Assembly (NCBI GenBank): GCA_965368335.1
Contig: CBDUMN010000003.1
Span: 1,586 to 65,585 of the forward strand
Direction of reading: 5' to 3'
DNA: 64,000 bases
Source: an uncultured Rhodospirillales bacterium
GTDB taxonomy: Bacteria > Pseudomonadota > Alphaproteobacteria > Rhodospirillales > JAPHRK01
Below the pieces are notes generated by a model that saw only the letters and a program-made list of their open reading frames with translations, was not told the origin of the DNA and did no database searches. Within the stretch, counting starts at the first letter, position 1, and each line of letters opens with the position of its first letter. Both the position numbers and the translations under genes were made by a program. Below are positions 35,662 through 61,431 of this stretch, piece after piece.

Positions 35662-37905
35662 TTAGAACCACTTTTCGAGCCGATTAAGCGCTATGGCGAA
35701 CCCTTCGCCACCGTTTTTATGTCCCTGCCAAATTTCGGGAATAAACGAAGCCGAGGAACAACACTTCTTCACCTGCTTTGCCAAGTGCTCAAAATCAATA
35801 TCTCCATCCCCGATCTGTAGTCCTTCATCATCGACCCCGCGAGCATCGACAAGATGCAAATGTTTTGAGTAAGGCCCTACGGTTTCAATAAATGAAGCAA
35901 ACGACCAGCCAAACTTTGTACAGGCCAATTTAGAATGAGAGGTATCCAAACAAATATTCGTTTCATATGTTTTGCAGAACCACTCGATTTCATCTGGGTC
36001 CATGAATAAGTTGTGGTAACGCTGCCCCCCCATTAACCAAGGAAACGGTGGCATGGTCTGAGGTAAAAGCTCGACCCCTTCGCTATCAACTCGCAAAAAC
36101 CCTTCTGCGACGCGCTCGTACATCTTGCGCCTGTCTGATTCAGGGATAAAACTCTTCTCTGAAAAGCCCCCAACATTGACAATAATGAACGGACGGTCGG
36201 CACGTTTAAAATAGGGCTTCAACGTCCGGGCCACATCGACAACATTTTGCAATTCACGAATGCCTCGCTCCCAAATTGCATTGTCGTCAGAGGCTAGATC
36301 GAGCAAATAATCACGAGCGAAAACCTCCGGGGAATGAACTACTAAATCCATATCCAGAGGCCCGTCCATATAACTTTCGACGGATATATCCATATCCTTG
36401 AAGCTCAGATGGAACTCCAACAAATCTGGTGCGATTTTCTCGAGAAACTGTTTGTAGTCATGGCATCGGACAGGCACGCCCCATGGATGCCTGAACTTAT
36501 AATCATGAAAAACGTTTTGTTCGCCAATGACATCTGCTTCAAAAAAGAAATCTCCAGCCTTGATATCCCGCGTCGCCAAGCTGCCGACCAACTCACTTCG
36601 CCGGTTGGGCTGGATACCGCGCCCCGGGTTCTTGATATCAATAATATCATCGGTGATGACATCACCCTTCGAAACATCACGAGTAGCAACGAGGCTTTTG
36701 GCGAGGATTTCGCGGTTCATCATTTCGCCCTGGCTTAAAACGCGGACAGGCTCACCAATGGAATCTTCAGTCTGCCGAATGGCCTCAACCATCTCCCGAA
36801 ACTCATCAGGCAATAAACTAATTCGATGGTCGTTGCCTTCTAGGGACCGGTCGACCGTAAAATGCTTCTCAACAATTTTTGCCCCTAGCGCAACCGCCGA
36901 AACAGCCACATGAATACCGCGTTCGTGTCCTGAATATCCCACCGGGCATTCACCGATTTCTTTCAAACGTTTTAGGTATGAAAGGTTGATGTCCTTGAAT
37001 GGTGGCGGGTATGCGGAATTGCAATGAAGCAAGGCAAACTGAGCCCCCTGCCTTTGCAGAAGTTTCACGGCATCCTTGATTTCCTGCTCATTCGACATGC
37101 CGGTCGAGACGATCATTGGTTTTTTAGTAGCGGCGACCGCCGCCAAGAGCTCATGGTTTGTCAGATCTGCGGATGCAATTTTATATGCTTGAACCCCCAT
37201 GCCCTCTAAAGCTTGCAAACTTTCCAAATCCCAGGGCGTACAAAGCGGGATAGCCCCACAACGACGGACATAATTCAGCGCCTCAGCCATTTCCTCGTTG
37301 GAAAGCTGGAACCGTGACAACAGGTCAAGCACATATTGCGACCCCAAATCTTCACTTGGGTCATTCGCAGCATCGGCATTGCGATAGAGGCTATCCATAT
37401 GGCGGAGCTGAAATTTAACGCAATCAGCTCCCGCATCGACGGCAAGGTCGATCAGTTCCTTCGCACGTTTCAAGCTGCCATTATGGTTGTTGCCGATTTC
37501 AGCAATAATAAATGCCTTGGAATCATCGGAAATCTCACGCCCTTCAATATTCATGAAGGATGCTTCATCAAAAGCAATCGCGACGAAATGCCCCATTTCA
37601 TTGACCAGGGGGACAAAGTGGATTTTGCTATCTAGTAGATTTCTAATGACCTCGGGGTCCTCATCAACCCCAGCCACAGTGATTTCCTTGGTCATTAAAT
37701 CTGCGACAGAGCGGTTGATATCAACCTGGTCTTCATTCACCACCCAACGCCTAAAATCGCCGTCGGTAAAAACCCCTTCGATGGTCCCTCTCTCCGTTAC
37801 GGCGCAAACAAAACCCTTCTTGTTCTGGCTCATCTTGATGAGAGCTTCCAAAACCGTTGCATGAGCAAGCAACACGAAAGATTCGACATTTGATTGGATA
37901 ATCAT
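35662..37905 (-). CDS. four-module fusion: CBS pair, NeuB-type nonulosonate synthase, SAF domain and xylose-isomerase-like TIM barrel
   Basis: Residues 1-~115 are CBS-like (GFVCAVTERGTIEGVFTDGDFRRWV). From ~130 comes the NeuB signature AFIIAEIGNNHNGSLKRAKELIDLAVDAGADCVKFQ. The SAF domain is LVATRDVSKGDVITDDIIDIKNPGRGI. The last ~280 aa are sugar-phosphate isomerase/epimerase (AP-endonuclease-2 TIM)-like (HLHLVDARGVDDEGLQIGDGDIDFEHLA). Confidence 0.85.
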   Translation of the reverse strand: MIIQSNVESFVLLAHATVLEALIKMSQNKKGFVCAVTERGTIEGVFTDGDFRRWVVNEDQVDINRSVADLMTKEITVAGVDEDPEVIRNLLDSKIHFVPLVNEMGHFVAIAFDEASFMNIEGREISDDSKAFIIAEIGNNHNGSLKRAKELIDLAVDAGADCVKFQLRHMDSLYRNADAANDPSEDLGSQYVLDLLSRFQLSNEEMAEALNYVRRCGAIPLCTPWDLESLQALEGMGVQAYKIASADLTNHELLAAVAATKKPMIVSTGMSNEQEIKDAVKLLQRQGAQFALLHCNSAYPPPFKDINLSYLKRLKEIGECPVGYSGHERGIHVAVSAVALGAKIVEKHFTVDRSLEGNDHRISLLPDEFREMVEAIRQTEDSIGEPVRVLSQGEMMNREILAKSLVATRDVSKGDVITDDIIDIKNPGRGIQPNRRSELVGSLATRDIKAGDFFFEADVIGEQNVFHDYKFRHPWGVPVRCHDYKQFLEKIAPDLLEFHLSFKDMDISVESYMDGPLDMDLVVHSPEVFARDYLLDLASDDNAIWERGIRELQNVVDVARTLKPYFKRADRPFIIVNVGGFSEKSFIPESDRRKMYERVAEGFLRVDSEGVELLPQTMPPFPWLMGGQRYHNLFMDPDEIEWFCKTYETNICLDTSHSKLACTKFGWSFASFIETVGPYSKHLHLVDARGVDDEGLQIGDGDIDFEHLAKQVKKCCSSASFIPEIWQGHKNGGEGFAIALNRLEKWF

Positions 37906-46013: not shown

Positions 46014-46694
46014 TTATAGATGACGCTGCTTCGCAGGGTTTCCATAAACAACGGCGCCCGACGGCACATCCTCAACCACCACAGCGCCACACCCAACGAC
46101 GGCACGGTCACCAAGCGCCAAACCCTGGCGGATAATTGCCCCAGCACCGACAAAGGCTAAACGGCCGACCGTTACACCACCAAGCAAGCAGGCCCGCGGC
46201 GCAATGTGCACATGGTCCCCAACCCGGCAATCATGTTCAACGACAGCCGCCGTATTGACGATGACGTTATCGCCGAGACAACTGTTGGCATTGATGACCG
46301 CACGCGGAAGCACCACCGTCCCCTCGCCTAACTTTGCAGATGGCGAAACGACCGCGGAATCATGAATGACCGTCAGAGGCGAAAGCCCCGCAGAGATCGC
46401 TTGGGCAAAAAGCTTTTCACGTTGTTGATTATCAATTCCGCCCCCGAGCCCCAACACAAACCAATGAAATCCATTGGCCACAGCGTCGCTTAGCACCTCG
46501 TCACCGCCAATGACAGGCAACCCATGGGCGGCGCCTTGAGCCTGGAGTTTTTTCTTTGAATCGAGAATGGCGGCTGTGCTCAGAAATTCCTTATGGGCAG
46601 AGCTTTGAAAAGCGTCCAGCACCACGCCTGCATGCCCACCACCACCAATGATGACCAGCCGCCCCTTGGAGACCTTGCCGCCGATATCGCCCAT
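46014..46694 (-). CDS. NeuD/PglD-family hexapeptide-repeat sugar N/O-acetyltransferase
   Basis: N-terminal Rossmann-like LVIIGGGGHAGVVLDAF. The C-terminal left-handed beta-helix repeats are VVSPSAKLGEGTVVLPRAVINANSCLGDNVIVNTAAVVEHDCRVGDHVHI. Confidence 0.85.
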   Translation of the reverse strand: MGDIGGKVSKGRLVIIGGGGHAGVVLDAFQSSAHKEFLSTAAILDSKKKLQAQGAAHGLPVIGGDEVLSDAVANGFHWFVLGLGGGIDNQQREKLFAQAISAGLSPLTVIHDSAVVSPSAKLGEGTVVLPRAVINANSCLGDNVIVNTAAVVEHDCRVGDHVHIAPRACLLGGVTVGRLAFVGAGAIIRQGLALGDRAVVGCGAVVVEDVPSGAVVYGNPAKQRHL

Positions 46695-46756
46695 AATTTT
46701 CCTGGGATCGCCAGCCGTTATAATCCACTTAAATAACGGCTGGAAACCGTTCTAAC

Positions 46757-47101
46757 CTAGCTTCCTTCGAGGAAACCTTCGGAAATTTGGAGATTGATAT
46801 TGATGAGGGTGTCCAAGGACTCGGAGGGTAATTCGACACCATGTTTCATAACGGTTTCTGCAACGAATTGGCTCAAACGAACCAAGTTCCCTGTTGTTTC
46901 TTCGGAAAGCCCATTGTCTGCCCGTTGCGCCAAAAGCCGAATGGCAATCCAGGTTTCCATGTTCTTTTCAAGCGCCGCCGCGAGCAGTCCTTGATCTTCC
47001 CGGGCATTATCCATCAGAACCGCGGCTTCAGATAACTGGTAAGCACTTTCTTTCGGTGCGTTTTCTTCCATTCCCGCGAAGGCCATTGATTCGTCTGCCA
47101 T
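46757..47101 (-). CDS. divergent FlaF-family protein (second copy)
   Basis: Aligns by eye with the FlaF at 59498-59938. LLAAALEKNMETWIAIRLL matches VLAAVRINWQLWTILQ, and LDTLININLQISEGF matches LDVLININRELAAGL. ATG 47101 is preferred (GGAAGGGG RBS). Confidence 0.55.
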   Translation of the reverse strand: MADESMAFAGMEENAPKESAYQLSEAAVLMDNAREDQGLLAAALEKNMETWIAIRLLAQRADNGLSEETTGNLVRLSQFVAETVMKHGVELPSESLDTLININLQISEGFLEGS

Positions 47102-47180
47102 ACTGACACCCCTTCCTATTAATGCCGTGTCCGGCCCACCTGTTTCACTGGCCGTCACGATACGCCGCACGATGCGGGAT

Positions 47181-47207
47181 CAATCGACCATTACACGAGG
47201 TAGTTTA
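47181..47207 (-). promoter_or_regulatory. weak sigma28-like promoter upstream of the FlaF paralogue
   Basis: The minus strand reads TAAA-N15-GTCGATTG (consensus TAAA-N15-GCCGATAA), ~70 nt upstream of ATG 47101. Only a 5/8 match in the -10 element. Confidence 0.2.
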
Positions 47208-47248
47208 CCTGATTCCTATGGCAAATCAACGCTCTCGCAAACTATCGA

Positions 47249-48766
47249 CTATTTCAGCAGCTCCGGATAGCGGCGCAGCATCCCAGTTGAAATGCGGGAG
47301 AGCAAGCCGACATGGTAGGGATCGGCAACTTGTCGATATTCAGCCTGCATATCATCTTCTTCCCGACTAGGCTCAACGCCATCTAAACGATCCATCATTT
47401 CAACAACTGCTTCACGCAATTCTTCCGACGTATTATCAACCACCTCAACCCCGTAACGCTCCAAGAACAATGGCTCGGTAGCCCCGAAAAGCGGGGCCTT
47501 GAGGCTCTCTGTCGTGCTCATAAGTTCACCCGTATCCTTTTTCTTTAGGAGTTTGGGCACGAACATATCTCCACTACAGAAAGGCCACCAGCCAAGCGGG
47601 AACCAGTTGGTCCCAAGACTCGGGACGCCAAAATTCGGCGGCAAGGCGCTCGGTCCAGAGGCCATACCTAAGAAAAACCGGCTTTCACCGATGAAAAATA
47701 CATCCATCCACTTTTCCCGGACATCGCCGCAGGCATGATCGATCACCCTATCCATTTTAGGTAAAGGCTCCATGGAAGGATCGCCAATACGGACAACCCA
47801 GCCGCCACGGCGAGTGATTTCCTCGATTGCAGGCAAGTAGCTCTCAACCTTGGCATTGCGGAAAACGTTGTTATTCCAGGGAACGTCTTCATCGAAGAAA
47901 CCGGCTTCACGCACATGCATGCTGACAAACCAAGCATCATCGGGCATGCCGCAATTTTTAAGAAAAGCGTAGCCCTTTTCCTTATGTTCTTCCTTGACCT
48001 TCAGAAGCGGCGGGCGTTTCTGCTTTTCCCATATTTCCTGAACCGCCCGGTGCGCCAGCATCCGATTCATCGTACGCCCGTCGGGCAATTCATAATAATC
48101 GGTATAGACCCAGTTATCGCGATATCTCGCAGATGCCTCGGCAATCTCCTCCTCACTAAAACAGACATCGATATGCTCTTGCCAATATTCAGCGAAGTCC
48201 TTGTTGACCAAGACATCGTTAGGCGCGAGCAAAACCGCCTTTTCCCCATCGATCAGACCAAGCTCCCGGCTTTTCAGATAAAGGTCCATGCGGTGCCCCA
48301 TTTCACCAAAAAAACGGCATATCAGCTTGTGGGGTTCAAGCAAATGGGTCACAGGCTCTTGCGCCTGATCCGACACCTGTCGCGCTTGCTGGTAAATCGC
48401 CGCATTGCCCCGGCGATAGAGGTCATAGGCATCCTCTTCCTGACCAATACGAAAGAGTTCATCGCCCAAATGGTAGATGAAATGTACTGATCCGGGCAAA
48501 GTCCTGATGGCGATCCGATAGATATCCGCAGCCATTTCCGGATATCCCTTAACCGTGCATATGCCTCCCAAACGCTCAAGGATGCTGCGCGTATATTCAT
48601 CCTTCTTGCCAAACGACAAAGCTTTTAAGAGATACGGCTCACCATGAATGAAGGTTTTGCGAATTGCCGAAAGATACAGCCCCATCCTGGCATTGCTCTC
48701 ATAGCCATCTGGGTCTTTTTCATAGAGCTCGAAAAGCTCGGTTGGATTTTCATTAATGAGGGACAT
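47249..48766 (-). CDS. helical-repeat N-terminus plus putative glycosyltransferase-like C-terminal domain (uncharacterised family)
   Basis: 505 aa with a TPR-like helical N-terminal ~130 aa. The C-terminal pattern (WFVSMHVREAGFF...FRNAKVESYLPAIEEITRRGGWVVRIGDP...FFLGMASGP) recalls, from memory, an uncharacterised 'putative glycosyltransferase' family. Not verifiable here. Confidence 0.4.
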   Translation of the reverse strand: MSLINENPTELFELYEKDPDGYESNARMGLYLSAIRKTFIHGEPYLLKALSFGKKDEYTRSILERLGGICTVKGYPEMAADIYRIAIRTLPGSVHFIYHLGDELFRIGQEEDAYDLYRRGNAAIYQQARQVSDQAQEPVTHLLEPHKLICRFFGEMGHRMDLYLKSRELGLIDGEKAVLLAPNDVLVNKDFAEYWQEHIDVCFSEEEIAEASARYRDNWVYTDYYELPDGRTMNRMLAHRAVQEIWEKQKRPPLLKVKEEHKEKGYAFLKNCGMPDDAWFVSMHVREAGFFDEDVPWNNNVFRNAKVESYLPAIEEITRRGGWVVRIGDPSMEPLPKMDRVIDHACGDVREKWMDVFFIGESRFFLGMASGPSALPPNFGVPSLGTNWFPLGWWPFCSGDMFVPKLLKKKDTGELMSTTESLKAPLFGATEPLFLERYGVEVVDNTSEELREAVVEMMDRLDGVEPSREEDDMQAEYRQVADPYHVGLLSRISTGMLRRYPELLK

Positions 48767-50357: not shown

Positions 50358-52280
50358 TCATGAGCCCCCCTTGCCAATTGGGCCAGGTCTCAGCCCCTCT
50401 CCATAATGTTTCCACATGGTTAAATACAGGGTTTCGAGGTTCCTGACCTTTGCAGTTGTATCGAACAAGGGGTGGGTTTTTCTGTTTTCAACAACACGAT
50501 ATTTTAGTTTCCGCAGCCGACCGATATCTTCAACGATTTCCAGAACAAGATTTTCATACGCCTCAAGATCAGACGCGATAAGTTCTTCCAAACCATGCGA
50601 ACAAAGAAGGCTCTCGGAAACTCTGGAAGCAAAATGGCTCCCAGCAATGGCGACGACCGGGATACCGGCCCATAAGGCGTCCGTTGTCGTGGTGTGCCCC
50701 GTATAGATCCGCGTATCGAGTGCCAAATCGGCCAAAGCAATACGCGCCAGATGCTCAGGCTTTGAAAGCTTATCGGCGAAAATCAAGCGATTGTCTTCTA
50801 TCCCTGCGGCCCGCGCCTGGGCCTTTAAGTTTTTTTCAGCTTCTCGGTTATGGCCGAACAGCCAAAGTACGCTTCCTTGAATTTGATGGAGCAAAGACAT
50901 CCAGACGGAAAACATCTGCCTGTCGATTTTATATGTCTGACAGAAGCAGCAAAATACCAATGCATTTTCCGGCAAACCCTGTGAAGCTCGACTTAGCAAT
51001 TGAGGGCCCACAGCCTGTTCATTATCGGTTGGCCAGTAGGTCCCCTCAAGATAAGCGGGGGCTTCCGTGAAGAATGGGACATCGCTGGCCGGGCAAACGA
51101 TGTCATCAACAAGTACGTAGTCGAGGAAATCCCCCCCACAGGTACCGGGATAGCTAAGATACCCTACCTGCAACGGGGCTGGCCGTAATGCACAAATTTC
51201 GAGTCGCGAGCCGTCCGTATGCCCCGTCAAGGCGATGAGGATATCAATACCGTCTCGATTGATCCGTTCCGCCGCTTCTCCATCGTTCAAACCAGCAACA
51301 TCGACAAAGCGGTCGCACGATGCGGTTATCGCTTGGCGGTGAGGACTTCCGTCATCGGGACCGAAAGAATAGGCAAACACCTCAAAAACATCCCGGTTAT
51401 GCTTGCCATAAAGGCCTGCCGTATTATGGGCGGTGGGGTGATCGTAAAAATTTCCACTCAAATAGCCGATCCGAAGTTTCCCTCCATGGAAGCCACTCTG
51501 GTTAAAGGAAACCCGCTGGCGAATGGGCGCCAATTTATCGACCATCTCCGTCGACCAAGCTTTGGCGACTTCCAAATTTCGCTCTGGATGTGCACTCCTG
51601 GCGATACTCATAAACGGCGTTTCTCCAGGGCGTTCGCCATCGGCCAGGGCCTTAACAGTTTGCTCTTCCATACGCGCCTCAACCTGTTCCATCTCCTCCC
51701 AGGAGCAGGTTTTCTGCAGAATATGGAAAAGTTGCGCAACGGCATCACGATCATCAGGCACACAGGAGACAACCTGATTCAGCATTTGCTTTGCTTCCCC
51801 AAAACGCCCGAGAAGCTCCAGGGCGCAGCCCCGATTGTAAAGGGCGGCGCAATTATCAGGAGCAAACTCAAGGGCTTTGTCAAACCGGCCAAGCGCCTTT
51901 TCTAGTTCCCCCATTTTGAGATAAACGCCACCCAGATTAAGATTTAATACAGGGTTCTCGGGGGCAAGACTCAAGGCCTCTTTAATAACGGACTCGGCAC
52001 ACGTAAGATCGCCACGGGCAATCAGGGTCAAACCGAGATTAACCGACGCTTCACTGAATGATGGATTAATCTCGAGCGCCCTACGATAATGTGCTTCTGC
52101 TTCGGCATACCTCCCCAAATCTGACAAGGCATTACCTAGATTGCTAGGCACAGCTGCCGATTGCGGCGCAAGCTCCATAATACGCTTTAACAGATGTATG
52201 GCCGCCTCCGCCTCCCCTGCGGCCCTAAGCGCGCTGGCCTTCTCAAAAAGAACCGCAAGATTGTCTTTCGGCATGTCCAT
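50358..52280 (-). CDS. TPR-repeat / GT41 (O-GlcNAc-transferase, SPINDLY-like) glycosyltransferase
   Basis: Roughly five to six TPR units in the N-terminal ~200 aa. The C-terminal GT41 hallmarks are LRIGYLSGNFYDHPTAHN, DGIDILIALTGHTDGSRLEICALRPAPLQVGYLSYPGTCGGDFLDYVLVD, and ALVFCCFCQTYKI. Confidence 0.8.
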   Translation of the reverse strand: MDMPKDNLAVLFEKASALRAAGEAEAAIHLLKRIMELAPQSAAVPSNLGNALSDLGRYAEAEAHYRRALEINPSFSEASVNLGLTLIARGDLTCAESVIKEALSLAPENPVLNLNLGGVYLKMGELEKALGRFDKALEFAPDNCAALYNRGCALELLGRFGEAKQMLNQVVSCVPDDRDAVAQLFHILQKTCSWEEMEQVEARMEEQTVKALADGERPGETPFMSIARSAHPERNLEVAKAWSTEMVDKLAPIRQRVSFNQSGFHGGKLRIGYLSGNFYDHPTAHNTAGLYGKHNRDVFEVFAYSFGPDDGSPHRQAITASCDRFVDVAGLNDGEAAERINRDGIDILIALTGHTDGSRLEICALRPAPLQVGYLSYPGTCGGDFLDYVLVDDIVCPASDVPFFTEAPAYLEGTYWPTDNEQAVGPQLLSRASQGLPENALVFCCFCQTYKIDRQMFSVWMSLLHQIQGSVLWLFGHNREAEKNLKAQARAAGIEDNRLIFADKLSKPEHLARIALADLALDTRIYTGHTTTTDALWAGIPVVAIAGSHFASRVSESLLCSHGLEELIASDLEAYENLVLEIVEDIGRLRKLKYRVVENRKTHPLFDTTAKVRNLETLYLTMWKHYGEGLRPGPIGKGGS

Positions 52281-52478: not shown

Positions 52479-53552
52479 ATGGACGTATTGACCGCCAGCA
52501 CCAAACAGACCAGTTTTGCACTTGCCCGCCTATTAACCCAGATGAGCGAGAGCCAAGAGGCGCGCATTAAAACCGAAATGCGCCCCATTGAAGCGAAGCA
52601 TGATAAACGGGTCCATAATGCAGAATTGCAGATGGATCGCTGGAAAAAGGTCAGCAAAGATATTGGCGAAGCTACGTCAACACTCGCAGGGAATATCAGC
52701 AACTTAAAATCAATCCGATCAAAACTCGACGGACTGCTCTCAGCCGTCAACAAAGCCGACCAGCGGGCCTCAGACCCCAGCTTTAACCCTGATGGGTATG
52801 CAGCCTCATTCGACGCTCTTATGAAAAGCATTTCCTCCAGTACGGAAGACTCCGGGCGCGACGTCAATCTGATCGGAAAACGCAAAGTCTCACTTGAATA
52901 TCCAACCGATATTTATGGCCGTAAAGAAGAGGTTGGGAGCGTTTCTCTGGATAGCGACTATTACATCATCGATAACGATGGCGGGCGCTGGGTTCTTGAT
53001 CGGCAAGCCGGAAATCTTAAACGTTATACCGATTATCCAAATGGCGCGACGAGTTCTGTCGGCAGCTTTCCAACGGGCATTCAGTTAGACAGCATCGATT
53101 CAGACGACAACCTCACTTTTACCATTGCTCCAAATACGGCATCCCCAGAAACTTTTTCCGGGACGCTCTATCGTAGCGGACTTAACATTATGGATTCATG
53201 GTACTATGAGGGGCTTTCAACGGCGGATGCGCGAAATGCCGCAATTAGTGACATTCATTCTGCACGCAAAGCTATAAAGCTCGAAATTGCGCGATACGAA
53301 AGCCAGTTCTCTCTGGCTCAGTTCTATGAAGAACGCGCCAACGGCGAGGTCGGAGGCCTACGGGAAGATAAGAACGAAGCCTTGTTAGCCAAAGCAAAAG
53401 AGGTGGGAAAAGCCAAAGAAAAACTCATCCGGGAATTTCAAGCAGCGCAAGACGCCATCCAGATGTCGACGATACTTAAAAGAGAATATGCATCTTTTCT
53501 CAAACCAACGGCCAACACGCTGGGTCGGCAACTGATCAGCATCTTAAGTTAA
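52479..53552 (+). CDS. hypothetical protein with degenerate flagellin-like termini
   Basis: 357 aa. The helical N-terminal ~110 aa, a Ser/Thr/Asp/Gly-rich middle and a helical C-terminus parallel the flagellin at 60394-61311. YAASFDALMKSISSSTEDSGRDVNLIG matches EYSDQLKELAVQIEKLVSDATYQGLNLLN. FSLAQFYEERANGEVGGLREDKNEALLA matches LQVRADFTEEYIGTLETGAGKLTVADLNEEGANLLA. Confidence 0.4.
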   Translation: MDVLTASTKQTSFALARLLTQMSESQEARIKTEMRPIEAKHDKRVHNAELQMDRWKKVSKDIGEATSTLAGNISNLKSIRSKLDGLLSAVNKADQRASDPSFNPDGYAASFDALMKSISSSTEDSGRDVNLIGKRKVSLEYPTDIYGRKEEVGSVSLDSDYYIIDNDGGRWVLDRQAGNLKRYTDYPNGATSSVGSFPTGIQLDSIDSDDNLTFTIAPNTASPETFSGTLYRSGLNIMDSWYYEGLSTADARNAAISDIHSARKAIKLEIARYESQFSLAQFYEERANGEVGGLREDKNEALLAKAKEVGKAKEKLIREFQAAQDAIQMSTILKREYASFLKPTANTLGRQLISILS

Positions 53553-53563
53553 TCATCCAACAA

Positions 53564-55546
53564 TCAAACGTCTGAGCGGGAAGCGGTTTTTTTTATCTGC
53601 CTTAAAAAAGCCTGTGCCTCTTTAAATATTTCTCCCGCCAACACATCGAACCGCCCCAGAAAAAAACAGAAATAAGCTGTTCGATCTTTGTCGCTGGCTA
53701 TTCGGGAACCGCGATAGGTGCCTAAACGTGCCAAAGACAACAGCGACCCATGCACTAATCTCACTACGCCCCGGAATTTATCTCCTCCTTCCCCTAAAAC
53801 AGCCTCAACCTGCCGCTGCAAGGCAATATATTCTTGGGGAGGATTAGTTGAGATGGAATTGTGAAGGGCATCATAAAGCGCATCACATGCCTCAATATGA
53901 CCATCAAAATCGGTATCACGCAAAAATTCAGCTGGCGTAAAATATCTCAAACTCATTTCCAGTTCTGAAATAAGTGTCTTTTGCGATATATCGCATATCT
54001 GAAAATCCAGGGTATTTGAGGCTAATGACTTGGCGCCATCAACCCGCGCCCCCCAACTACAGTTCGTCACATCAAGATTTTTTGTTCTGATAAGTTCCGT
54101 GATGGTCCGTCGGGAGAGATCATAATAAGCAGACGTAGCAATCTCACCGCCAAAATTGCCGGGCACAAGGCGGGTAAATTCGCCTTCAAGATATTCATGC
54201 CCCTCGCCTTCAATAAAATTGTCATAGCCCTTTTCATAATAGACTGCGTCTTTGGAATGATGCAGTCCTCCTTGCACCCGACCACAATCGACGCCAAACA
54301 TGACAAACCTCTTAAATCCAAGGCTCGACATCGCCGCCAATGCCGCATTGGCAACCAGAGGACCGGCGTAGGCAACAGGCTCCCACTTTGATGCAAGAAC
54401 GTGGGCGGGACTGAGCGTTGAACGGAAGTAATACCAAACCCGCTCAAACATTTCACTGGCCTCCCGGTTAACGGTAGCCGAGGCGATAAGAGTGATCCCT
54501 TCAAAGCCGAATTCATCTTGGAAGGTCTTCAAGTTTTGAACGAGAGGATAAGAATTTTCGTTCTCTATATGGAAATCTGGTCTGATCCCATTTTTGAGCA
54601 AAACGCCTAAACTACTGCCACAACTAACAACCAGCGCCCCTTTGCGGAGCTTAGCGATATCCTTAAGATCATTATCCAGAGAAGGCCCCGAACCGACGAT
54701 GAAAACCGTCTCATCCCTAGTTGCAGAATTGCTCCCTTCTAAAAGACGGACGCTTCCGGTCGCCAGATTATCGACCGCATTCTCCATCATCATTTTTTCG
54801 TCGCCAAAATGACCGGGGCGGATTAGGAAATTCCCAATTCTTTCATTCAGTATTTTCCGGCATTCAATCACTTGCCAGGACGGATAATGAATAAAGGCAA
54901 AGGTCCCATCGATAAAACGCGCAGCTCCCGAATGTATAATGAGCGCCTCAGCTTCAAGCATAAACCGCTCCGGCGTCAGTCCAATTTTAAAGTGAAGAGC
55001 CGTTCCCTGGTCTTCTGCCTGTTTAAACACCTTTTCCCAGTCAAGGGCGTACATTGAATGCTTAACGAACTCCGGCACCGGCTCGACCACAACCATCTGT
55101 TCAGCCCTGCATTGCTCGAGAAGCATCGGAATGTGGTAGCCGAGTCCCAGACCAAAAACGAAAGCAATACCGACATCGCTCACAGGAAAGTCTTCGGAAA
55201 TCCCAATCCCATTTTCTTGAGCAAACCGGTCTAACTCTTCAGCGAGCCTAAATGTCAAGGAGGGCTGGCTATCATCCAGCGGGTCGGGGATTTTCAAACG
55301 ATCCGGGCTGGAAAGGTAAGCCGCAACCTGTTTGGTTACATAGGATTTCGCCGCCTCCGGATACAGCTCTACACCGGCAACTTTTAAATTTACCGCCTCA
55401 CCGCCTTGATAAACAACTTGTCCACCTTGGCCACCGTTTCCCGATAAAGATCGCAAAACATGTGGATGTGCCCTGGCAAACGCCTGGAGATTTCTCGAGT
55501 AGAGCGAGGCTGCCTTTATGTCATTCGGGCCCGACACCGGCAACAC
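53564..55546 (-). CDS. maf: motility accessory factor Maf (DUF115/MptE-like putative flagellin glycosyltransferase), copy 1
   Basis: The central Maf signature is VFIVGSGPSLDNDLKDIAKLRKGALVVSCGSSLGVLLKNGIRPDFHIENEN, followed by MFGVDCG. The annotated GTG 55546 may be replaced by GTG 55537 (GAGGG 7 nt upstream). Confidence 0.85.
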   Translation of the reverse strand: MLPVSGPNDIKAASLYSRNLQAFARAHPHVLRSLSGNGGQGGQVVYQGGEAVNLKVAGVELYPEAAKSYVTKQVAAYLSSPDRLKIPDPLDDSQPSLTFRLAEELDRFAQENGIGISEDFPVSDVGIAFVFGLGLGYHIPMLLEQCRAEQMVVVEPVPEFVKHSMYALDWEKVFKQAEDQGTALHFKIGLTPERFMLEAEALIIHSGAARFIDGTFAFIHYPSWQVIECRKILNERIGNFLIRPGHFGDEKMMMENAVDNLATGSVRLLEGSNSATRDETVFIVGSGPSLDNDLKDIAKLRKGALVVSCGSSLGVLLKNGIRPDFHIENENSYPLVQNLKTFQDEFGFEGITLIASATVNREASEMFERVWYYFRSTLSPAHVLASKWEPVAYAGPLVANAALAAMSSLGFKRFVMFGVDCGRVQGGLHHSKDAVYYEKGYDNFIEGEGHEYLEGEFTRLVPGNFGGEIATSAYYDLSRRTITELIRTKNLDVTNCSWGARVDGAKSLASNTLDFQICDISQKTLISELEMSLRYFTPAEFLRDTDFDGHIEACDALYDALHNSISTNPPQEYIALQRQVEAVLGEGGDKFRGVVRLVHGSLLSLARLGTYRGSRIASDKDRTAYFCFFLGRFDVLAGEIFKEAQAFLRQIKKTASRSDV

Positions 55547-57515
55547 CCTCTATCTTATCACGCCCTTCCGCCATTTGCCCGAGTACGTTACGGGTATCAT
55601 CGACCATCAGCTCAACTTTTTCCTTATAGGCCCCCATAAAAAAGCGGAGGAAAGCCAAACGGTCGTCTTGGTTAGCGATCCGCGTTCCGGCAAAAGCCCC
55701 AACCCGGATCATTGATACCAAGCTTGATCTGATAATAGAGAGAATACCCCGGCAGGGGGCTTCCAGGCGATCACGGAGGGTGATAATCCGGTGATGAAAA
55801 TCCCAAAAACTTTCATCCTCCCCGAAAGCCTCATCCATCGCCTTGAGAAATTCGTCCTCAAAAAGATCACATTTGGCGACAAGGTCATCGAGATCAAGAC
55901 CCGACAAATATTCTCCAGCAGGAAATGAGGGTAACGTCTGTGCAATACGGTTGATTAGCTGGGCCTGATACCCTTCAGGTCCATGAAAGGTCAGAGCCGA
56001 CGCGGCTTTAGGGGCAGCTCCATCTATCTTTGCACCATCACTGCAATTGACAACTTTGACATCGGATCGCTGGCATAAAGGGCCAAAACTAGCCCGCGAC
56101 ATGTCCAAATACCATGTCGTTAAGGCCTCACCACCAAAGTTGGCGGGGACAACACGGTCAAACTCATTCTCTAATAGCTCAAAACTTTCGCCTTCAAGAT
56201 AATTGTCATAATCGTCTTCATAATAAATCGCTTCACCTGCATGGTGGCCATGCTCGGTCCGTCGCCCGCAGTCCACTCCAAAGAAATAGAAATTACGGAA
56301 CCCAACGCTCAGCATAGCGGCCATCGCCGAATTGGCGACAAGGGGGTCGGCCCCTAAAAGAGGCGCAAGCCCTCGATTGAGAGAGGCTGTACAGCTCAAC
56401 CCCGTACGATAATAAAACCATCTTTTGTCAAAAAGTTTTCCAGCTTCAGGGTTTACCGATGTTGAGGCCACATAGGTAATGGGTGAAAGATCGTACTTTT
56501 TCGAAAAATTCCTGAGGTTCTCGACCAAAGGCCATGAATTTTCATTTTCTCCATGAAAATCCGGAACAATTCCGTTTTTCAAAAGAATCCCTAGACTGCT
56601 TGTCCCACAAGAAAAAACGATGGCCTTATTGCGCCATTTTTTGACAACGTCCAAATCCTTATCCAACGACGGTCCAGAACCCACAATGAAGACGGGTTGC
56701 TCTCTCTGAACGACCGGTTTTCGCTGGAGAAAGGAAAGCGGAAAACGATGCAGATTGCCGTAGGAGTTTGTCATCATCAGCAATTCATCTTCATAAAAGC
56801 CAGAAGAGATATAACTGACTGCAATCCTTTCATTGAGCAATCTGCGGGCTTCAAGAAGCTCCCAAGAGGGGTAGTGTATATAGGCGTAAGATCCCTCGAT
56901 AAAAGTTTTCCCGTCATCCCAAATATACCGTTCAATACTACGCACGATAACGGCAGGCGGCGCCCCTACGATAAAGCGCACCTCCACTGACTGCGCGTCT
57001 GCCGCTTCAAAAAAATCCGCCCAGTCGAAGACCTCAAATGAAGCACGAAGCAAAGCCGGTTGCGGCTCAATAAGAACCATGACCTTCGCTTTGTTATTTT
57101 CAAGCAGCAGCTTTAGGTGATGCCCAAGGCCAATACCAAAGACAAAGCAAAAACCGATATCAACAAGAGGATGGGAACTGACTTCTTCCCCATAATCGTT
57201 GGCGATGTAATCCCTGACCTTCGAAAGTAGATCTTTTGATATGGGTGATAAATTGCAATAGGCGGGGCTGGCGAAACCAATGCGATCCGGATCGTCAAAA
57301 TAGTTTTCAACCTGTTTCTGACTGCAGCCGACAGCAGGTTCCTGATAAAGCAGAGTACCGCCGATACTTACATCGACGGCCTCCCCTTCTTCATAAACAA
57401 TCGATACATCCGGTGAGCGCCGTTCTTCCCCAAGACGCCAGAGGTCAGGAGATCGCGTTTGAAAAATTTGTCTGTTTTTTTCAAATAAAGTTAGGTCGCC
57501 AGCTTGATTGTTCAT
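55521..57515 (-). CDS. maf: motility accessory factor Maf, copy 2 (tandem paralogue)
   Basis: VFIVGSGPSLDKDLDVVKKWRNKAIVFSCGTSSLGILLKNGIVPDFHGENEN and FFGVDCG. It is collinear with copy 1 along the whole length. Confidence 0.85.
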   Translation of the reverse strand: MNNQAGDLTLFEKNRQIFQTRSPDLWRLGEERRSPDVSIVYEEGEAVDVSIGGTLLYQEPAVGCSQKQVENYFDDPDRIGFASPAYCNLSPISKDLLSKVRDYIANDYGEEVSSHPLVDIGFCFVFGIGLGHHLKLLLENNKAKVMVLIEPQPALLRASFEVFDWADFFEAADAQSVEVRFIVGAPPAVIVRSIERYIWDDGKTFIEGSYAYIHYPSWELLEARRLLNERIAVSYISSGFYEDELLMMTNSYGNLHRFPLSFLQRKPVVQREQPVFIVGSGPSLDKDLDVVKKWRNKAIVFSCGTSSLGILLKNGIVPDFHGENENSWPLVENLRNFSKKYDLSPITYVASTSVNPEAGKLFDKRWFYYRTGLSCTASLNRGLAPLLGADPLVANSAMAAMLSVGFRNFYFFGVDCGRRTEHGHHAGEAIYYEDDYDNYLEGESFELLENEFDRVVPANFGGEALTTWYLDMSRASFGPLCQRSDVKVVNCSDGAKIDGAAPKAASALTFHGPEGYQAQLINRIAQTLPSFPAGEYLSGLDLDDLVAKCDLFEDEFLKAMDEAFGEDESFWDFHHRIITLRDRLEAPCRGILSIIRSSLVSMIRVGAFAGTRIANQDDRLAFLRFFMGAYKEKVELMVDDTRNVLGQMAEGRDKIEGVAGVGPE

Positions 57516-57555: not shown

Positions 57556-59490
57556 TCAGCAAACGTCTTTCCACAATCGCTCAAGAACCGTCTCCATATC
57601 AATGCAACGGGCCTTGAAATCAAACAACGGTGCTTTAGAGATTTTTTCAGCAGCATCCTGCTTGAAAGCTGCGCGCCCAGCCTCATCTTTAATCCATCGC
57701 TCAACTAAGGCTAAGTAATCTTTCCGGCTGGTCGCCACGCAACTTTCCGACATCCCCATTTGCGTCAGAACTTCCGCACTTACCTTATCCGCCGTGCGGC
57801 TACCTTTCATACAGATAGGAGGAACGCCAAAACCTGCACTTGTCACCACACTGAGATTTTGGTGACCGCTTGTAGGTACTAGCAGCAAGTCAATCTGAGA
57901 ATAAAACTCTGACTGCGTCGCGCTTTGAATAATGTCGATCCGGTGTGAAACACCAAAATTTCCAAATAAATCTAGGACTTTGCCCGCATTCTTCGCATTT
58001 TGGAAATCGTAATCCTGCATCAGCAAGGTTGCGCTAGGGTATTTTCTGAGAAGCTCCGCCCACAGTCCAACAGAATCTGGCGTCAACTCACACAGCTCGG
58101 CATCGACGCCAAACGTCAGAAGGTCACTCGTCCGCTCAAGAACAGAACGATCGTCGGGCTTAGGCACTTCCACCAGCATGTTTCCATGCTCAAGCAACAC
58201 GATCTTTTCTGCTAAAATACTCTTGTTTTCAGGAACCATCTCGCCCCCCAACATGAGAGCATCCATGTTCTTGAGCCCCGTTCCATAAGGCGTTCCATGG
58301 AGTGAAACTTGGAGAGGCGCCATACGGGCGCCGAATGCCCGCAACAACTGAGGATCATTAAACCCAACGGTATTGATAAAAATATCGACCCCTTCCGCCA
58401 AGCAAATGGCCGCCAAAGTCACCGGGTCCATTTCTCGAACATCGTGCCAGATATCAAATGCTTTTTGGTAATGGACATTTGATGCGTCACTTAAAGCCCC
58501 AAAACCGAAGCCAACCGTCCGGAAACGGGCGGCATTTCGGTGAGCGAGAATATTTGCAAGCGCTTTCCCCTCACTGCGACGGGATAGAGAGCCCAGCAGA
58601 TAGCCAGCGGTCAAAATCGGTTTGTCGGTTGCCTGCCCCTCATCAAAGCCTTGGTCTTCTTCGCCGAACCGAGCACCCCATTGAGCAGCCAGCTCACAAA
58701 GGGCTTCTTCCGTTGATTCTGGCGATAAGGCTAAATCTGAAATTGCTTTTGCAAAGTATTCAGAATTCTCGCTATCAAGATGCATCGCCCATTTGTGGAC
58801 GGACTGGCTTTGGCCATACTCACCAATGAGCGCGAGAAGAGATCCTAACATACTGGCGATATCAGGGTCTTCGGCTAGACGGTGCATTGCACCACGTAAA
58901 ATATCGACAGCTTCTTGGTAACGCCCCAATACCGTCAGGCAATTCACTAACCCAAGATAGGATTTCTTATCATCCTGCTTAAAATGAATACATTGCAAAA
59001 ACCAATGTATCGCCATCCCCCAGTCTTTAGACGAAACGGCCGCGACGGCACGAGTGAATAGTGGATTATCCTCAATATCGATAAAGGCGCTCGATAAGCT
59101 TGGAATCGATTGTGGCAAGATTTCCTTTAAGGCCGGAACGGAAGGAACCGAACTTGCTAATTTGGCATAAAACAGTGACTTGGTCAGTTCCCCTGCAAGG
59201 GCGTAAAGCACCGCCAAAAAATCGGCATATTCACTGACATTCGAATCCGCATTTAGCGCGGCTTCGCCAAGCGCCACGGCTTCAGCCCAGTCATCCTCAA
59301 GAAAGCGTCCAATTGCCAAAACATAGTACGCTTCAGCATAGATGGACGTTTCTTTTAAATCGGCTTGTTGCTCAAGAAAAGCAGCGCAGGCATTGCTAAT
59401 ATCAGACCAATTACCGTCCGCAACACCTTCGCCAACAATCGAAAGGAAACCCTCCCGCGTCGTAGCGGCATCAATAACCAAATTACTCAT
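57556..59490 (-). CDS. TPR-repeat / GT41-like glycosyltransferase (FlmG-like architecture)
   Basis: The N-terminal ~280 aa are TPR-like. The C-terminal half follows the GT41 layout (GVDIFINTVGFNDPQLLRAFGARMAPLQVSLHGTPYGTGLKNMDALMLG ... LLTFGVDAELCELT). It lies 7 bp downstream of flaF. Confidence 0.7.
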   Translation of the reverse strand: MSNLVIDAATTREGFLSIVGEGVADGNWSDISNACAAFLEQQADLKETSIYAEAYYVLAIGRFLEDDWAEAVALGEAALNADSNVSEYADFLAVLYALAGELTKSLFYAKLASSVPSVPALKEILPQSIPSLSSAFIDIEDNPLFTRAVAAVSSKDWGMAIHWFLQCIHFKQDDKKSYLGLVNCLTVLGRYQEAVDILRGAMHRLAEDPDIASMLGSLLALIGEYGQSQSVHKWAMHLDSENSEYFAKAISDLALSPESTEEALCELAAQWGARFGEEDQGFDEGQATDKPILTAGYLLGSLSRRSEGKALANILAHRNAARFRTVGFGFGALSDASNVHYQKAFDIWHDVREMDPVTLAAICLAEGVDIFINTVGFNDPQLLRAFGARMAPLQVSLHGTPYGTGLKNMDALMLGGEMVPENKSILAEKIVLLEHGNMLVEVPKPDDRSVLERTSDLLTFGVDAELCELTPDSVGLWAELLRKYPSATLLMQDYDFQNAKNAGKVLDLFGNFGVSHRIDIIQSATQSEFYSQIDLLLVPTSGHQNLSVVTSAGFGVPPICMKGSRTADKVSAEVLTQMGMSESCVATSRKDYLALVERWIKDEAGRAAFKQDAAEKISKAPLFDFKARCIDMETVLERLWKDVC

Positions 59491-59497
59491 CGAAACC

Positions 59498-59938
59498 TCA
59501 CGCGGTTATTTCACCATTGCCTAGCCCCTGGGGGACCTCCGCCTCTTCCTCTTTTTCTTTCTCTTTGGAAGAGCCGGGCAGCGGCGTCCTCAACCCAGCG
59601 GCCAACTCCCGGTTGATATTGATCAACACATCAAGCTTCTTATGATCCGGGTTCGCAATGAGATCCATGGAATATTTATCGATAAAATTCGCAAGAGAAA
59701 TGCCATTATTCCGGATATCATCCGGCAAGGGGCACTCTGGGCTGAGCAATTCCGCTTGCAGAATAGTCCAAAGCTGCCAATTAATGCGAACTGCAGCCAG
59801 AACAACCTCTGTCTCACCGCTTTCTTTCGCCGCTTTAAGCCGCAAGGCTGCTTGGGTTAATCCCCAGGCCTCAACCTCCCTCGGGTTCCCCGGAGCCGGG
59901 GGCGTCTCGTAGTTTTTCAGCAAGTTGTTCGTTGACAT
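59498..59938 (-). CDS. flaF: flagellar biosynthesis regulator FlaF
   Basis: LKNYETPPAPGNPREVEAWGLTQAALRL...NWQLWTILQAELLSPECPLPDDIRNNGISLANFI...LININRELAAGL matches the FlaF family pattern. Confidence 0.85.
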   Translation of the reverse strand: MSTNNLLKNYETPPAPGNPREVEAWGLTQAALRLKAAKESGETEVVLAAVRINWQLWTILQAELLSPECPLPDDIRNNGISLANFIDKYSMDLIANPDHKKLDVLININRELAAGLRTPLPGSSKEKEKEEEAEVPQGLGNGEITA

Positions 59939-60320
59939 GCATAAAAACCTTACTTTCGTGGGAAATAAGTCTCTGCGCTTTCTTCAAAGCCTTATAAAGT
60001 TCCCGTTTTTCAACCAGTCGCCATAACTCATCACCAATCGGCTGGGCGCTTGGTGCAGCCTTTAGGTAATCTGACAGGAATTCATTAAAGCGCCGTAAAT
60101 TGTCGGTGAATTCTGATGGGAAAAGGTAGAGACACTGCAAGGCGTAATAGGCCCGTGCGGCCGGGGTGACGGCGTCTTCCGGCGAAAGAACATCATTATC
60201 ACGCAATAGCGAGGCATCGTTCTTCAGAAGCAAGGATACATTACTGCTTCCGGTATTTTCGATAACCGCCCCGTTGATGATAATCTGCTGACCTTTTTTC
60301 AAATGAATTTTAAGCGGCAT
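59871..60320 (-). CDS. flbT: flagellin translational repressor FlbT
   Basis: MPLKIHLKKGQQIIINGAVIENTGSSNVSLLLKNDASLLRDNDVL...ARAYYALQCLYL is the conserved FlbT N-terminal pattern. Confidence 0.9.
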   Translation of the reverse strand: MPLKIHLKKGQQIIINGAVIENTGSSNVSLLLKNDASLLRDNDVLSPEDAVTPAARAYYALQCLYLFPSEFTDNLRRFNEFLSDYLKAAPSAQPIGDELWRLVEKRELYKALKKAQRLISHESKVFMHVNEQLAEKLRDAPGSGEPEGG

Positions 60321-60393: not shown

Positions 60394-61311
60394 TTACCTG
60401 AACAGACCCAGGATCGACTGCTCGGCCTGACCTGCGAAGGACAGAGCCTGGATACCCAGCTGCTGCCTGGTCTGCAAAGCAAGAAGGTTCGCACCTTCTT
60501 CGTTAAGGTCGGCCACCGTCAGCTTGCCAGCACCGGTTTCGAGAGTGCCAATGTACTCTTCGGTAAAGTCGGCGCGGACCTGAAGAATGGCCACGTTGTT
60601 CGCCATCGTTGCCGCTTCAGCCTGAATGTTACTGATCGTTTCATCAAGACGAGTAACCGCCGTATCGGCCATAACGTTAAACGAAGCGAGAACTTCGGCG
60701 TCATCGAAATCAAATGTCGAAAGCAACGCCCCAAAACCGAGCGTACTCTGAACGATATCCTCCGTAACAGATGCGTTCGGTGCATTGAGCGCCGAACCGG
60801 CGGAATCCAAGAAGAAGGTCGAAGCATTGAAATCAACGCCATCCACATCCAGCTTAGAATCAGCCTTGTCGGAGAAGCGAACCGAAAGCTTCGAAGACGT
60901 GGAGTTCAAGAGGTTCAGACCCTGGTAAGTCGCATCGCTGACCAGCTTTTCGATCTGAACAGCCAGCTCTTTTAGCTGATCCGAGTACTCGGCGCGCTGA
61001 GCCGTGTCACCACTACGGGCACTGTCGATAATACCCTTCATCTGCTTGGCGAGATCTTCCAGCGCATCGGCCGCCTTCAAAGCGGTGTCGAGAGCGCTGA
61101 TACCTTGGTCGATCGCCGACTTACGGTCGGAAAGATCGGCCGCGCGGTCATTCAACGACTTAGCCTGGAAAAACTTCACCGCGTCATCAGACGGCGATGC
61201 AATTTCCAAGCCCGTCGACAGACGACCCTGCGTCCGGTCAATAAGACTTGTCGTATTTTGCAGAGAAAGTAGGTTTGAGCGTACTGCTGAGGATAGAGAT
61301 ACATCAGCCAT
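60394..61311 (-). CDS. flagellin (305 aa, alphaproteobacterial short type)
   Basis: N-terminus LSSAVRSNLLSLQNTTSLIDRTQGRLSTGLEIASPSDDAVKFFQAKSLNDRAADL and C-terminus NLLALQTRQQLGIQALSFAGQAEQSILGLFR. AAGGGAG RBS. Confidence 0.95.
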   Translation of the reverse strand: MADVSLSSAVRSNLLSLQNTTSLIDRTQGRLSTGLEIASPSDDAVKFFQAKSLNDRAADLSDRKSAIDQGISALDTALKAADALEDLAKQMKGIIDSARSGDTAQRAEYSDQLKELAVQIEKLVSDATYQGLNLLNSTSSKLSVRFSDKADSKLDVDGVDFNASTFFLDSAGSALNAPNASVTEDIVQSTLGFGALLSTFDFDDAEVLASFNVMADTAVTRLDETISNIQAEAATMANNVAILQVRADFTEEYIGTLETGAGKLTVADLNEEGANLLALQTRQQLGIQALSFAGQAEQSILGLFR

Positions 61312-61382: not shown

Positions 61383-61431
61383 GAAAATGAAAAATCCATT
61401 AACCTTATGGGCGTGGGGATATTTTCATTTC
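61383..61431. promoter_or_regulatory. imperfect inverted repeat upstream of flagellin
   Basis: GAAAATGAAAAATCC (61383-61397) and GGATATTTTCATTTC (61417-61431) form a ~15-bp imperfect inverted repeat with a 19-bp spacer, 72-120 bp upstream of the flagellin ATG. Confidence 0.25.

Follow-up and report, generated by a model that had tools for sequence, protein, structure and literature searches.

The flagellar systems described so far that come closest to the gene considered here are a secretion chaperone, an export-gate ligand and a glycosylation factor. FlaF of Caulobacter is a secretion chaperone: it binds every flagellin, and flagellin secretion requires it; the TPR domain of FlmG suffices to bind flagellin, and possible competition between FlaF and FlmG has been raised by the authors (PMC7591256). 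In FliS, the N-terminal helix places Ile7 and Tyr10 in the cleft of FlhA-C, and Tyr10 is essential (PMC5932034). In Shewanella oneidensis, Maf-2 needs its specificity factor GlfM (SO_3260), an 89-residue protein encoded beside maf-2, with a predicted four-helix bundle and a remote similarity to FliS/FliT; GlfM bridges Maf-2 to flagellin by enabling a ternary complex, its two-hybrid partner is Maf-2 and not flagellin, and FlaF is unmentioned in that paper (bioRxiv 10.1101/2023.12.03.569772). The locus analysed here lies in a 64,000-nt stretch (the window) of contig CBDUMN010000003.1 from an uncultured Rhodospirillales bacterium. At 46757-47101 on its reverse strand, within an open reading frame spanning 46757-47170, it encodes a divergent FlaF-family protein, hereafter FlaF2. 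On sequence evidence, FlaF2 is a genuine member of a divergent FlaF subfamily which coexists with the FlbT-linked canonical FlaF (FlaF1; 59498-59938, reverse strand, 146 aa, Pfam FlaF 87.5 bits).

The initial annotation had described a second, highly divergent FlaF paralogue and proposed a comparison with the family profile. Against Pfam FlaF (PF07309), FlaF2 scores 39.3 bits (E=7e-10; profile positions 23-112/113), which passes the gathering score of 23.6. A pairwise BLASTP of FlaF2 with canonical FlaF gives no significant match (E=9.4), the LD.LININ block alone being aligned. At the clade level, HHalign of the FlaF2 clade with the FlaF1 clade returns a probability of 99% (E=9e-18, 105 columns, 23% identity); together with the Pfam match, this confirms the FlaF paralogy at the profile level. 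The W and LD.LININ....G[FL] blocks pointed out earlier are real, and W51, L99, N101, L104 and G109 are invariant across the FlaF2 subfamily. FlaF2 also resembles FlaF in being homologous over the whole domain, in its similar size, in its all-helical predicted bundle and in the location of its gene in the late flagellar/flagellin region. It differs in that two parts of FlaF1 are missing, the [LIVMF]xxY..PGNPR segment at the N-terminus and the tail at the C-terminus, and in carrying a C-terminal signature of its own, LININLQISEGLLEG; the subfamily ends in the invariant LDTLININLQISEGLLEG, with the stop codon almost directly after it (38 sequences). Family membership as such is already known, with orthologues of FlaF2 named "flagellar biosynthesis regulator FlaF" by the Prokaryotic Genome Annotation Pipeline (PGAP). 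No description of a second FlaF lineage, of its glycosylation-island synteny or of its absent N-terminal motif was found in the published literature.

The separation of the two lineages is readily seen in the homologue sets, drawn from a search space of 5.8 billion proteins. The FlaF2 search returned 56 homologues, all with PF07309, and the canonical FlaF search returned 314, with no overlap between the two; identity is ~50% inside each set and ~25% between them, which bears out the description as highly divergent. The hosts of FlaF2, amounting to ~50 species-level genomes, are Rhodospirillales-type: Magnetospira sp. QH-2, M. thiophila, Magnetovibrionaceae, Thalassospiraceae metagenome-assembled genomes and Magnetospirillum. 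A profile of the FlaF2 subfamily detects 161 cluster representatives at E<=1e-10, and 142 of the best 148 fit it better than the FlaF1 profile. For the reference FlaFs of Phyllobacterium (flgK-flgL-flaF-flbT), Erythrobacter and Azospirillum, the FlaF1 profile gives the higher score. In a neighbour-joining (NJ) tree (numpy implementation, 200 bootstraps), 43 FlaF2 sequences split from FlaF1 plus references in 177/200 replicates, and the Hyphomicrobiales, Sphingomonadales and Azospirillum reference FlaFs group with FlaF1. The reference profile scores and the NJ split therefore identify FlaF1 as the canonical lineage and FlaF2 as the derived one. The term "orphan" used in the initial annotation is misleading, since the subfamily is conserved, its synteny recurs across ~50 genomes, and some of its members stand beside flbT or flagellin genes. 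A tblastn search of FlaF2 against plasmids gave no match, and that of FlaF1 gave 34 records.

Several variants of the FlaF domain emerged from the same searches. Proteins P0177-P0186, P0190, P0272, P0273 and P0279 (289-357 aa) contain 2-3 tandem FlaF2-type domains and come from flagellar neighbourhoods of gut Alphaproteobacteria (the 'Acetobacter sp. CAG:977' cluster; loci L051, 9625-10606, and L052, 9974-10957); to our knowledge, tandem-fused FlaF domains have not been described. In Magnetospirillum P0050-P0055 (locus L008, 97-675), a FlaF2-type domain is fused to DUF2934 outside sugar islands, and in L036 a FlaF2-type gene stands beside mipZ and a hybrid histidine kinase. On plasmid AZO_p3 of Azospirillum lipoferum 4B (L059, 3983-4537), a FlaF1-type protein of 184 aa with a long Pro/Ala-rich tail is encoded by a solitary gene next to those of a GT9 glycosyltransferase and a TPR protein, with no flbT nearby; at least 2 further FlaF types occur on Azospirillum replicons. 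One match, P0258 (1605 aa, 29 matched stretches), proved to be a Diplonema kinesin and was discarded as a spurious coiled-coil hit.

The gene itself bears the marks of selection. The start codon is likely the ATG at 47101, giving 114 aa plus stop; the earlier figure of 115 aa had counted the stop codon. The MADESM N-terminus is common to FlaF2 and its closest orthologue (locus L002), and a Shine-Dalgarno sequence, GGAAGGGG, can be read at 47109-47116 on the reverse strand, 7 nt before this ATG. In the alignment of the window with L002, the block AAGGGGTGT-CAG-ATGGCAGACGAA of the Shine-Dalgarno region is kept. The two orthologues differ by 53 synonymous and 6 non-synonymous codons (81% nucleotide and 95% protein identity), and this ratio therefore marks FlaF2 as a real gene under strong purifying selection. 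That FlaF2 might be a decaying, non-functional duplicate or a chance open reading frame is suggested by its score on the NCBIfam FlaF equivalogs NF009435/NF009434, which at 35.7 bits falls short of the required 91. Canonical FlaF in the window fails the same cut-off too, with 79.8 bits, and the conservation and selection data (the codon differences, the start codon and Shine-Dalgarno kept in L002, the C-terminal motif invariant in 38 sequences) in effect refute such a decay, whose probability is negligible. Downstream of the gene, the 62-bp gap before the acetyltransferase gene holds a stem at 46706-46748 (reverse strand), made up of a perfect 11-bp core (CCAGCCGTTAT / ATAACGGCTGG) and 4 outer pairs; its folding energy is -22.2 kcal/mol (z = -2.7). 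The stem lacks a following T-run and is not kept in L002.

The predicted structure of FlaF2 brings FliS into the comparison. The AlphaFold (AF2) model, calculated from 38 sequences, has a predicted local distance difference test score (pLDDT) of 87.7 and a predicted template-modelling score (pTM) of 0.79, and consists of a four-helix bundle with a short N-terminal helix. The top Foldseek matches in the PDB are FliS entries (1orj, 1ory, 5xef, 3iqc, 6lea), with template-modelling (TM) scores of 0.6-0.67 and a probability of ~1, at E-values of 0.08-1 that are not significant, and designed helical bundles score alike. A possible likeness to FliS lies in the predicted bundle, in the best structural matches and in flagellin binding as the presumed activity. 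Unlike FliS, FlaF2 gives no match at the sequence-profile level: a Pfam scan at E<=10 returned FlaF alone and no FliS, and sequence and profile searches of the PDB with FlaF2 returned neither FlaF nor FliS. FlaF2 is, moreover, without the Ile7/Tyr10 helix that docks FlhA.

The two FlaF lineages also differ in this N-terminal segment. FlaF1 proteins of this lineage have a highly conserved [LIVMF]xxY...PGNPR start, for example NLLKNYETPPAPGNPR, and a tyrosine in the segment is present in 64/64 usable FlaF1 sequences against 3/47 of FlaF2; the full [LIVMF]xxY pattern occurs in 40 of the 64 and in none of the 47. The N-terminus of FlaF2 is variable and acidic, and the window protein has no tyrosine before helix 1. 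In the window FlaF1 (59498-59938, reverse strand, residues 1-20), Leu7 and Tyr10 occupy the same positions as Ile7 and Tyr10 of FliS. By this analogy, the FlaF1 motif may be the export-gate docking site of FlaF, so that FlaF1 looks like an export-gate-docking chaperone and FlaF2 does not, and the absence of the tyrosine motif argues against a classical export-pilot role for FlaF2. This bears directly on the idea that FlaF2 is a second, partly redundant flagellin secretion chaperone, a sub-functionalised duplicate used, for example, in another growth condition. Its family and fold are the same as those of FlaF1, and in L006, L038 and L039 it lies directly upstream of flagellin genes, as would be expected of such a duplicate; it nevertheless lacks the N-terminal tyrosine motif that is universal in canonical FlaF, the window contains a single canonical flagellin, and the ~25% identity and distinct clade point to a functional divergence of long standing. 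A redundant chaperone is accordingly a quite improbable explanation.

The initial annotation had placed the gene inside a sugar island without an adjacent FlbT, and both observations are borne out, the island being one for flagellin glycosylation. The island extends from ~16 kb to the end of the window and encodes dehydratases, aminotransferases, NeuB, a cytidylyltransferase, methyltransferases and radical-SAM enzymes. It also holds unusually many putative protein glycosyltransferases, namely two Maf proteins, two TPR+GT41 proteins, a TIGR04372 glycosyltransferase and a GT1 enzyme. Downstream of FlaF2, on the same strand and after the 62-bp gap, lies a NeuD/PglB/VioB-family sugar N-acetyltransferase gene (46014-46694, reverse strand; TIGR03570 212.5 bits against a cut-off of 160.8; Pfam PglD_N and Hexapep). 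Directly upstream is the gene of a 505-aa protein (47249-48766, reverse strand). The N-terminal half of this protein is helical and TPR-like, and its C-terminal half matches the TIGR04372 glycosyltransferase family (NCBIfam, residues 278-480; 189.4 bits, cut-off 45). The same 505-aa-type gene precedes FlaF2 in L002, and its homologue in L007 shows weak TPR matches. The modular plan of the 505-aa protein is that of FlmG, and three paralogues are found in L002; judged from this domain composition, TPR-like plus TIGR04372 proteins may constitute a third class of flagellin glycosyltransferase.

This arrangement is recurrent. In the synteny sample of 50 distinct loci, with direct neighbours defined as genes within 400 bp, sugar-pathway (nonulosonic-acid) or glycosyltransferase genes lie within 5 kb of FlaF2 in 19/26 loci having at least 5 kb on both sides, and 15 loci have a canonical FlaF no more than 10 kb away. 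A NeuD-like acetyltransferase gene follows FlaF2 directly in six loci besides the window (L002, L005, L007, L009, L016, L019), with the two genes overlapping in L005 and L007. The other direct neighbours are GT41a in L001, L003, L005 and L014 (Magnetospira and other genomes), Maf in L004 and L011 (Maf then FlaF2, with gaps of 154-166 bp), and the TIGR04372 glycosyltransferase in L002 and the window, as well as on the opposite strand in L007. Flagellin genes occupy this position in L006, L035, L037, L038 and L039, and flbT, divergent or convergent, in L006, L020, L038 and L039. In Magnetospira, the gene order is FlaF2, GT41a, flagellin, FlbT, FlaF1, GT41b and Maf, and each FlaF paralogue thus stands beside its own FlmG-like (GT41) paralogue. 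The coupling of flagellin translation or secretion to glycosylation status, suggested in the initial annotation, is consistent with this synteny. A role as chaperone for hook-associated proteins was also considered, given that flgK-flgL precede FlaF2 in L013, L016, L025 and L026; it was set aside as unlikely because the window already has FlgN (Pfam 39 bits).

Taking these observations together, the reading preferred here is that FlaF2 serves as a cytoplasmic flagellin-binding holdase or adaptor at the glycosylation step, co-expressed with the sugar genes, while FlaF1 pilots export; we assign it a probability slightly below one half (about 0.45). In the cytoplasm, FlaF2 would bind flagellin at the helical termini, as do Caulobacter FlaF and FliS, and would hold or present new flagellin for the glycosyltransferases of the island (Maf, FlmG-like GT41, TIGR04372 glycosyltransferase). 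It would not itself pilot flagellin to the export apparatus, because the [LIVMF]xxY segment resembling the Ile7/Tyr10 dock of FliS is absent. It would act much as GlfM does, at a stage preceding the transfer of flagellin to FlaF1 for export, and co-transcription with sugar-synthesis genes would tie the level of FlaF2 to the glycan supply. Such a protein bears on how cytoplasmic O-glycosyltransferases pick flagellin and on the order of glycosylation relative to chaperone binding and export. FlaF2 offers a concrete, genetically tractable candidate for the glycosylation step in Alphaproteobacteria, as it is carried by Magnetospira sp. QH-2 and by Magnetospirillum species. Automatic annotation currently merges under one name two FlaF lineages that are, by inference, functionally distinct.

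We infer that GlfM is the closest functional analogue of FlaF2. Both are small predicted four-helix bundles with FliS-like fold matches, and both are encoded inside a flagellin glycosylation island; the usual place of GlfM is immediately after a Maf gene, and FlaF2 is so placed in L004 and L011. Conserved acidic residues occur in the last helix of both, namely the nearly invariant D97 and invariant E108 of FlaF2 and the essential Asp77 of GlfM. The window FlaF2 differs from GlfM in that the nearest Maf is 6.4 kb off and the gene follows the TIGR04372 glycosyltransferase instead; the sizes are 114 and 89 residues, respectively. A stronger version of the proposal, in which FlaF2 would be a FlaF-derived counterpart of GlfM that has lost export docking and become an acceptor-presenting adaptor or holdase for at least one flagellin glycosyltransferase, is rather doubtful. 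If true, it would imply a checkpoint at which flagellin is handed to FlaF1 only after glycosylation, and chaperone-derived specificity factors for flagellin glycosylation would have arisen independently in Alphaproteobacteria.

Several observations weigh against a role at the glycosylation step. An adaptor may be unnecessary, because the GT41 and TIGR04372 enzymes have TPR-like domains of their own. The Foldseek E-values for FliS (0.08-1) are not significant, and de novo four-helix bundles score alike; the argument from the tyrosine motif rests on the FliS analogy. In Magnetospirillum, a FlaF2-type gene lies outside any sugar island, beside mipZ, and in L006, L020, L038 and L039 FlaF2 stands beside flbT and flagellin genes. 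In the window, the Maf genes are linked in cis to FlaF1 and not to FlaF2. They belong to an apparent operon, flbT-flaF1-GT41b-mafB-mafA, judged from the gene spacing on the reverse strand: FlbT (59871-60320; Pfam FlbT 109.1 bits) overlaps FlaF1; GT41b (57556-59490; FlmG-like, Pfam Glyco_transf_41 and TPR) follows FlaF1 directly after a 7-nt gap; and mafB comes after a 40-nt gap, with mafA overlapping it (the two Maf genes occupying 55521-57515 and 53564-55546; Pfam Maf_flag10_N and MptE-like). The Maf sequence matches the Maf structure of Magnetospirillum magneticum (5mu5, E=5.6e-54). FlaF1 and GT41b are adjacent in L001, L003, L007, L020, L029, L038 and L050, and FlaF1 overlaps the start of GT41b by 4 bp in L001, L003, L007 and L050. 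This gene arrangement shows a tight linkage, or translational coupling, between canonical FlaF and an FlmG-like TPR+GT41 glycosyltransferase. These overlaps and adjacencies, plus the two Maf genes, therefore mean that the glycosylation linkage is not unique to the second copy.

The flbT neighbours can also be taken as a sign of a different activity, in which FlaF2 would be a translational or stability regulator acting with or against FlbT on flagellin mRNA, thus providing a second input into flagellin synthesis. The family annotation as "flagellar biosynthesis regulator" agrees with this, as does the divergent or convergent flbT beside FlaF2 in the four loci just mentioned. Yet in the window and in Magnetospira it is FlaF1, not FlaF2, that flbT overlaps, most FlaF2 genes directly adjoin sugar-pathway enzyme genes, and in Caulobacter repression is due to FlbT together with the flagellin FljJ, whereas secretion is due to FlaF (PMC7591256). 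A regulatory function of FlaF2 is therefore considered unlikely. In the window, flbT is 12.8 kb away from FlaF2.

The preferred role at the glycosylation step has also to be weighed against the presence of an unusual potential client in the same island. At 52479-53552 on the forward strand, the window encodes a 357-aa protein that the initial annotation had called flagellin-like, and its predicted fold supports this: the AF2 model (pLDDT 79) gives 41 Foldseek matches in the PDB at E<=1e-3 (best 1.8e-6), and the top matches listed are flagellins, flagellar-filament entries and one FlgL. No Pfam (flagellin included) or NCBIfam family is matched. Judged from the model, a cryptic minor flagellin is one possibility for this protein, and some other protein associated with the filament is another. 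Its gene has 12 homologues, which are always found in Maf-containing islands, and is convergent with a maf gene in the window. It lies beside Maf and near FlaF2 in L004, L005, L011 and L022, being a direct neighbour of FlaF2 in the last, and on the same contig as FlaF2 in L002.

FlaF2 could thus be the dedicated chaperone of the 357-aa protein, with FlaF1 serving the canonical flagellin. The flagellin-like predicted fold and the proximity of the two genes in the window, in L004, L005, L011 and L022, and on the L002 contig favour such a pairing, but the distributions do not agree: the 357-aa family has 12 homologues, against ~50 species-level genomes and >140 clusters with FlaF2, its gene lies within 10 kb of FlaF2 in 4/50 loci only, and Magnetospira FlaF2 has none within 10 kb. 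Furthermore, a secreted client would need an export-gate-docking chaperone. The earlier suggestion that FlaF2 serves the 52479 protein fits the closest relatives only, not the whole subfamily, and a dedicated chaperone is distinctly unlikely.

With regard to expression, the 147-bp upstream gap is as the initial annotation stated: the intergenic region between FlaF2 and the TIGR04372 gene covers 47102-47248 (reverse strand). The weak sigma28-like element proposed there is present as a string, TAAA-N15-GTCGATTG (47181-47207, reverse strand), with 3 mismatches to TAAA-N15-GCCGATAA. As a promoter it was rejected: 3-mismatch matches occur 73 times in the window against 54 +/- 7 expected from shuffles, which amounts to chance frequency, and the -10 half is not kept in the upstream region of L002. 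A pair conserved with L002 is found instead in TTGATT (47229-47224) and TAAACT (47207-47202, reverse strand), separated by 16 nt; the -35-like block reads TTGAtt in one of the two genomes (window/L002) and TTGAaa in the other, and the "TAAA" of the earlier proposal becomes part of the -10 hexamer TAAACT. This pair can be read from the sequence as a weak sigma70-like candidate promoter, which went unreported by the promoter scan because it has 8/12 matches to the consensus. In L002, the upstream gene is followed by a hairpin and a T-run, an indication that FlaF2 heads a transcription unit in that locus. By eye, neither sigma54 spacing nor a CtrA box was found in the FlaF2 upstream region of the window.

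Upstream motifs of other kinds appear elsewhere. L038 and L044 carry TTAA-N7-TTAA motifs (CtrA-box type) ~50-70 nt upstream of FlaF2, and the Magnetospira loci L001, L003, L014 and L015 share ACCATATCTTGGGTTTGCAA upstream of FlaF2; neither motif is present in the FlaF2 upstream region of the window. At 61405-61431 (reverse strand), ~94 nt upstream of the flagellin start, GAAA-N15-GCCCATAA is a 2-mismatch sigma28 match, better than the string proposed for FlaF2. The canonical flagellin itself (305 aa) is encoded at 60394-61311 on the reverse strand and contains Pfam Flagellin_N and Flagellin_C.

The remaining features of the window complete this picture. A second FlmG-like TPR+GT41 glycosyltransferase, GT41a, is encoded at 50358-52280 (reverse strand; Pfam Glyco_transf_41 329 bits, and TPR). 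At 6.4-13.8 kb, flgE, flgI, flgJ-like, flgN, flgK and flgL-like genes are found. Within the island, a 747-aa fusion at 35662-37905 (reverse strand) combines CBS, NeuB, SAF and a xylose-isomerase-like TIM barrel (AP_endonuc_2), an architecture that is unusual for a nonulosonic-acid synthase.

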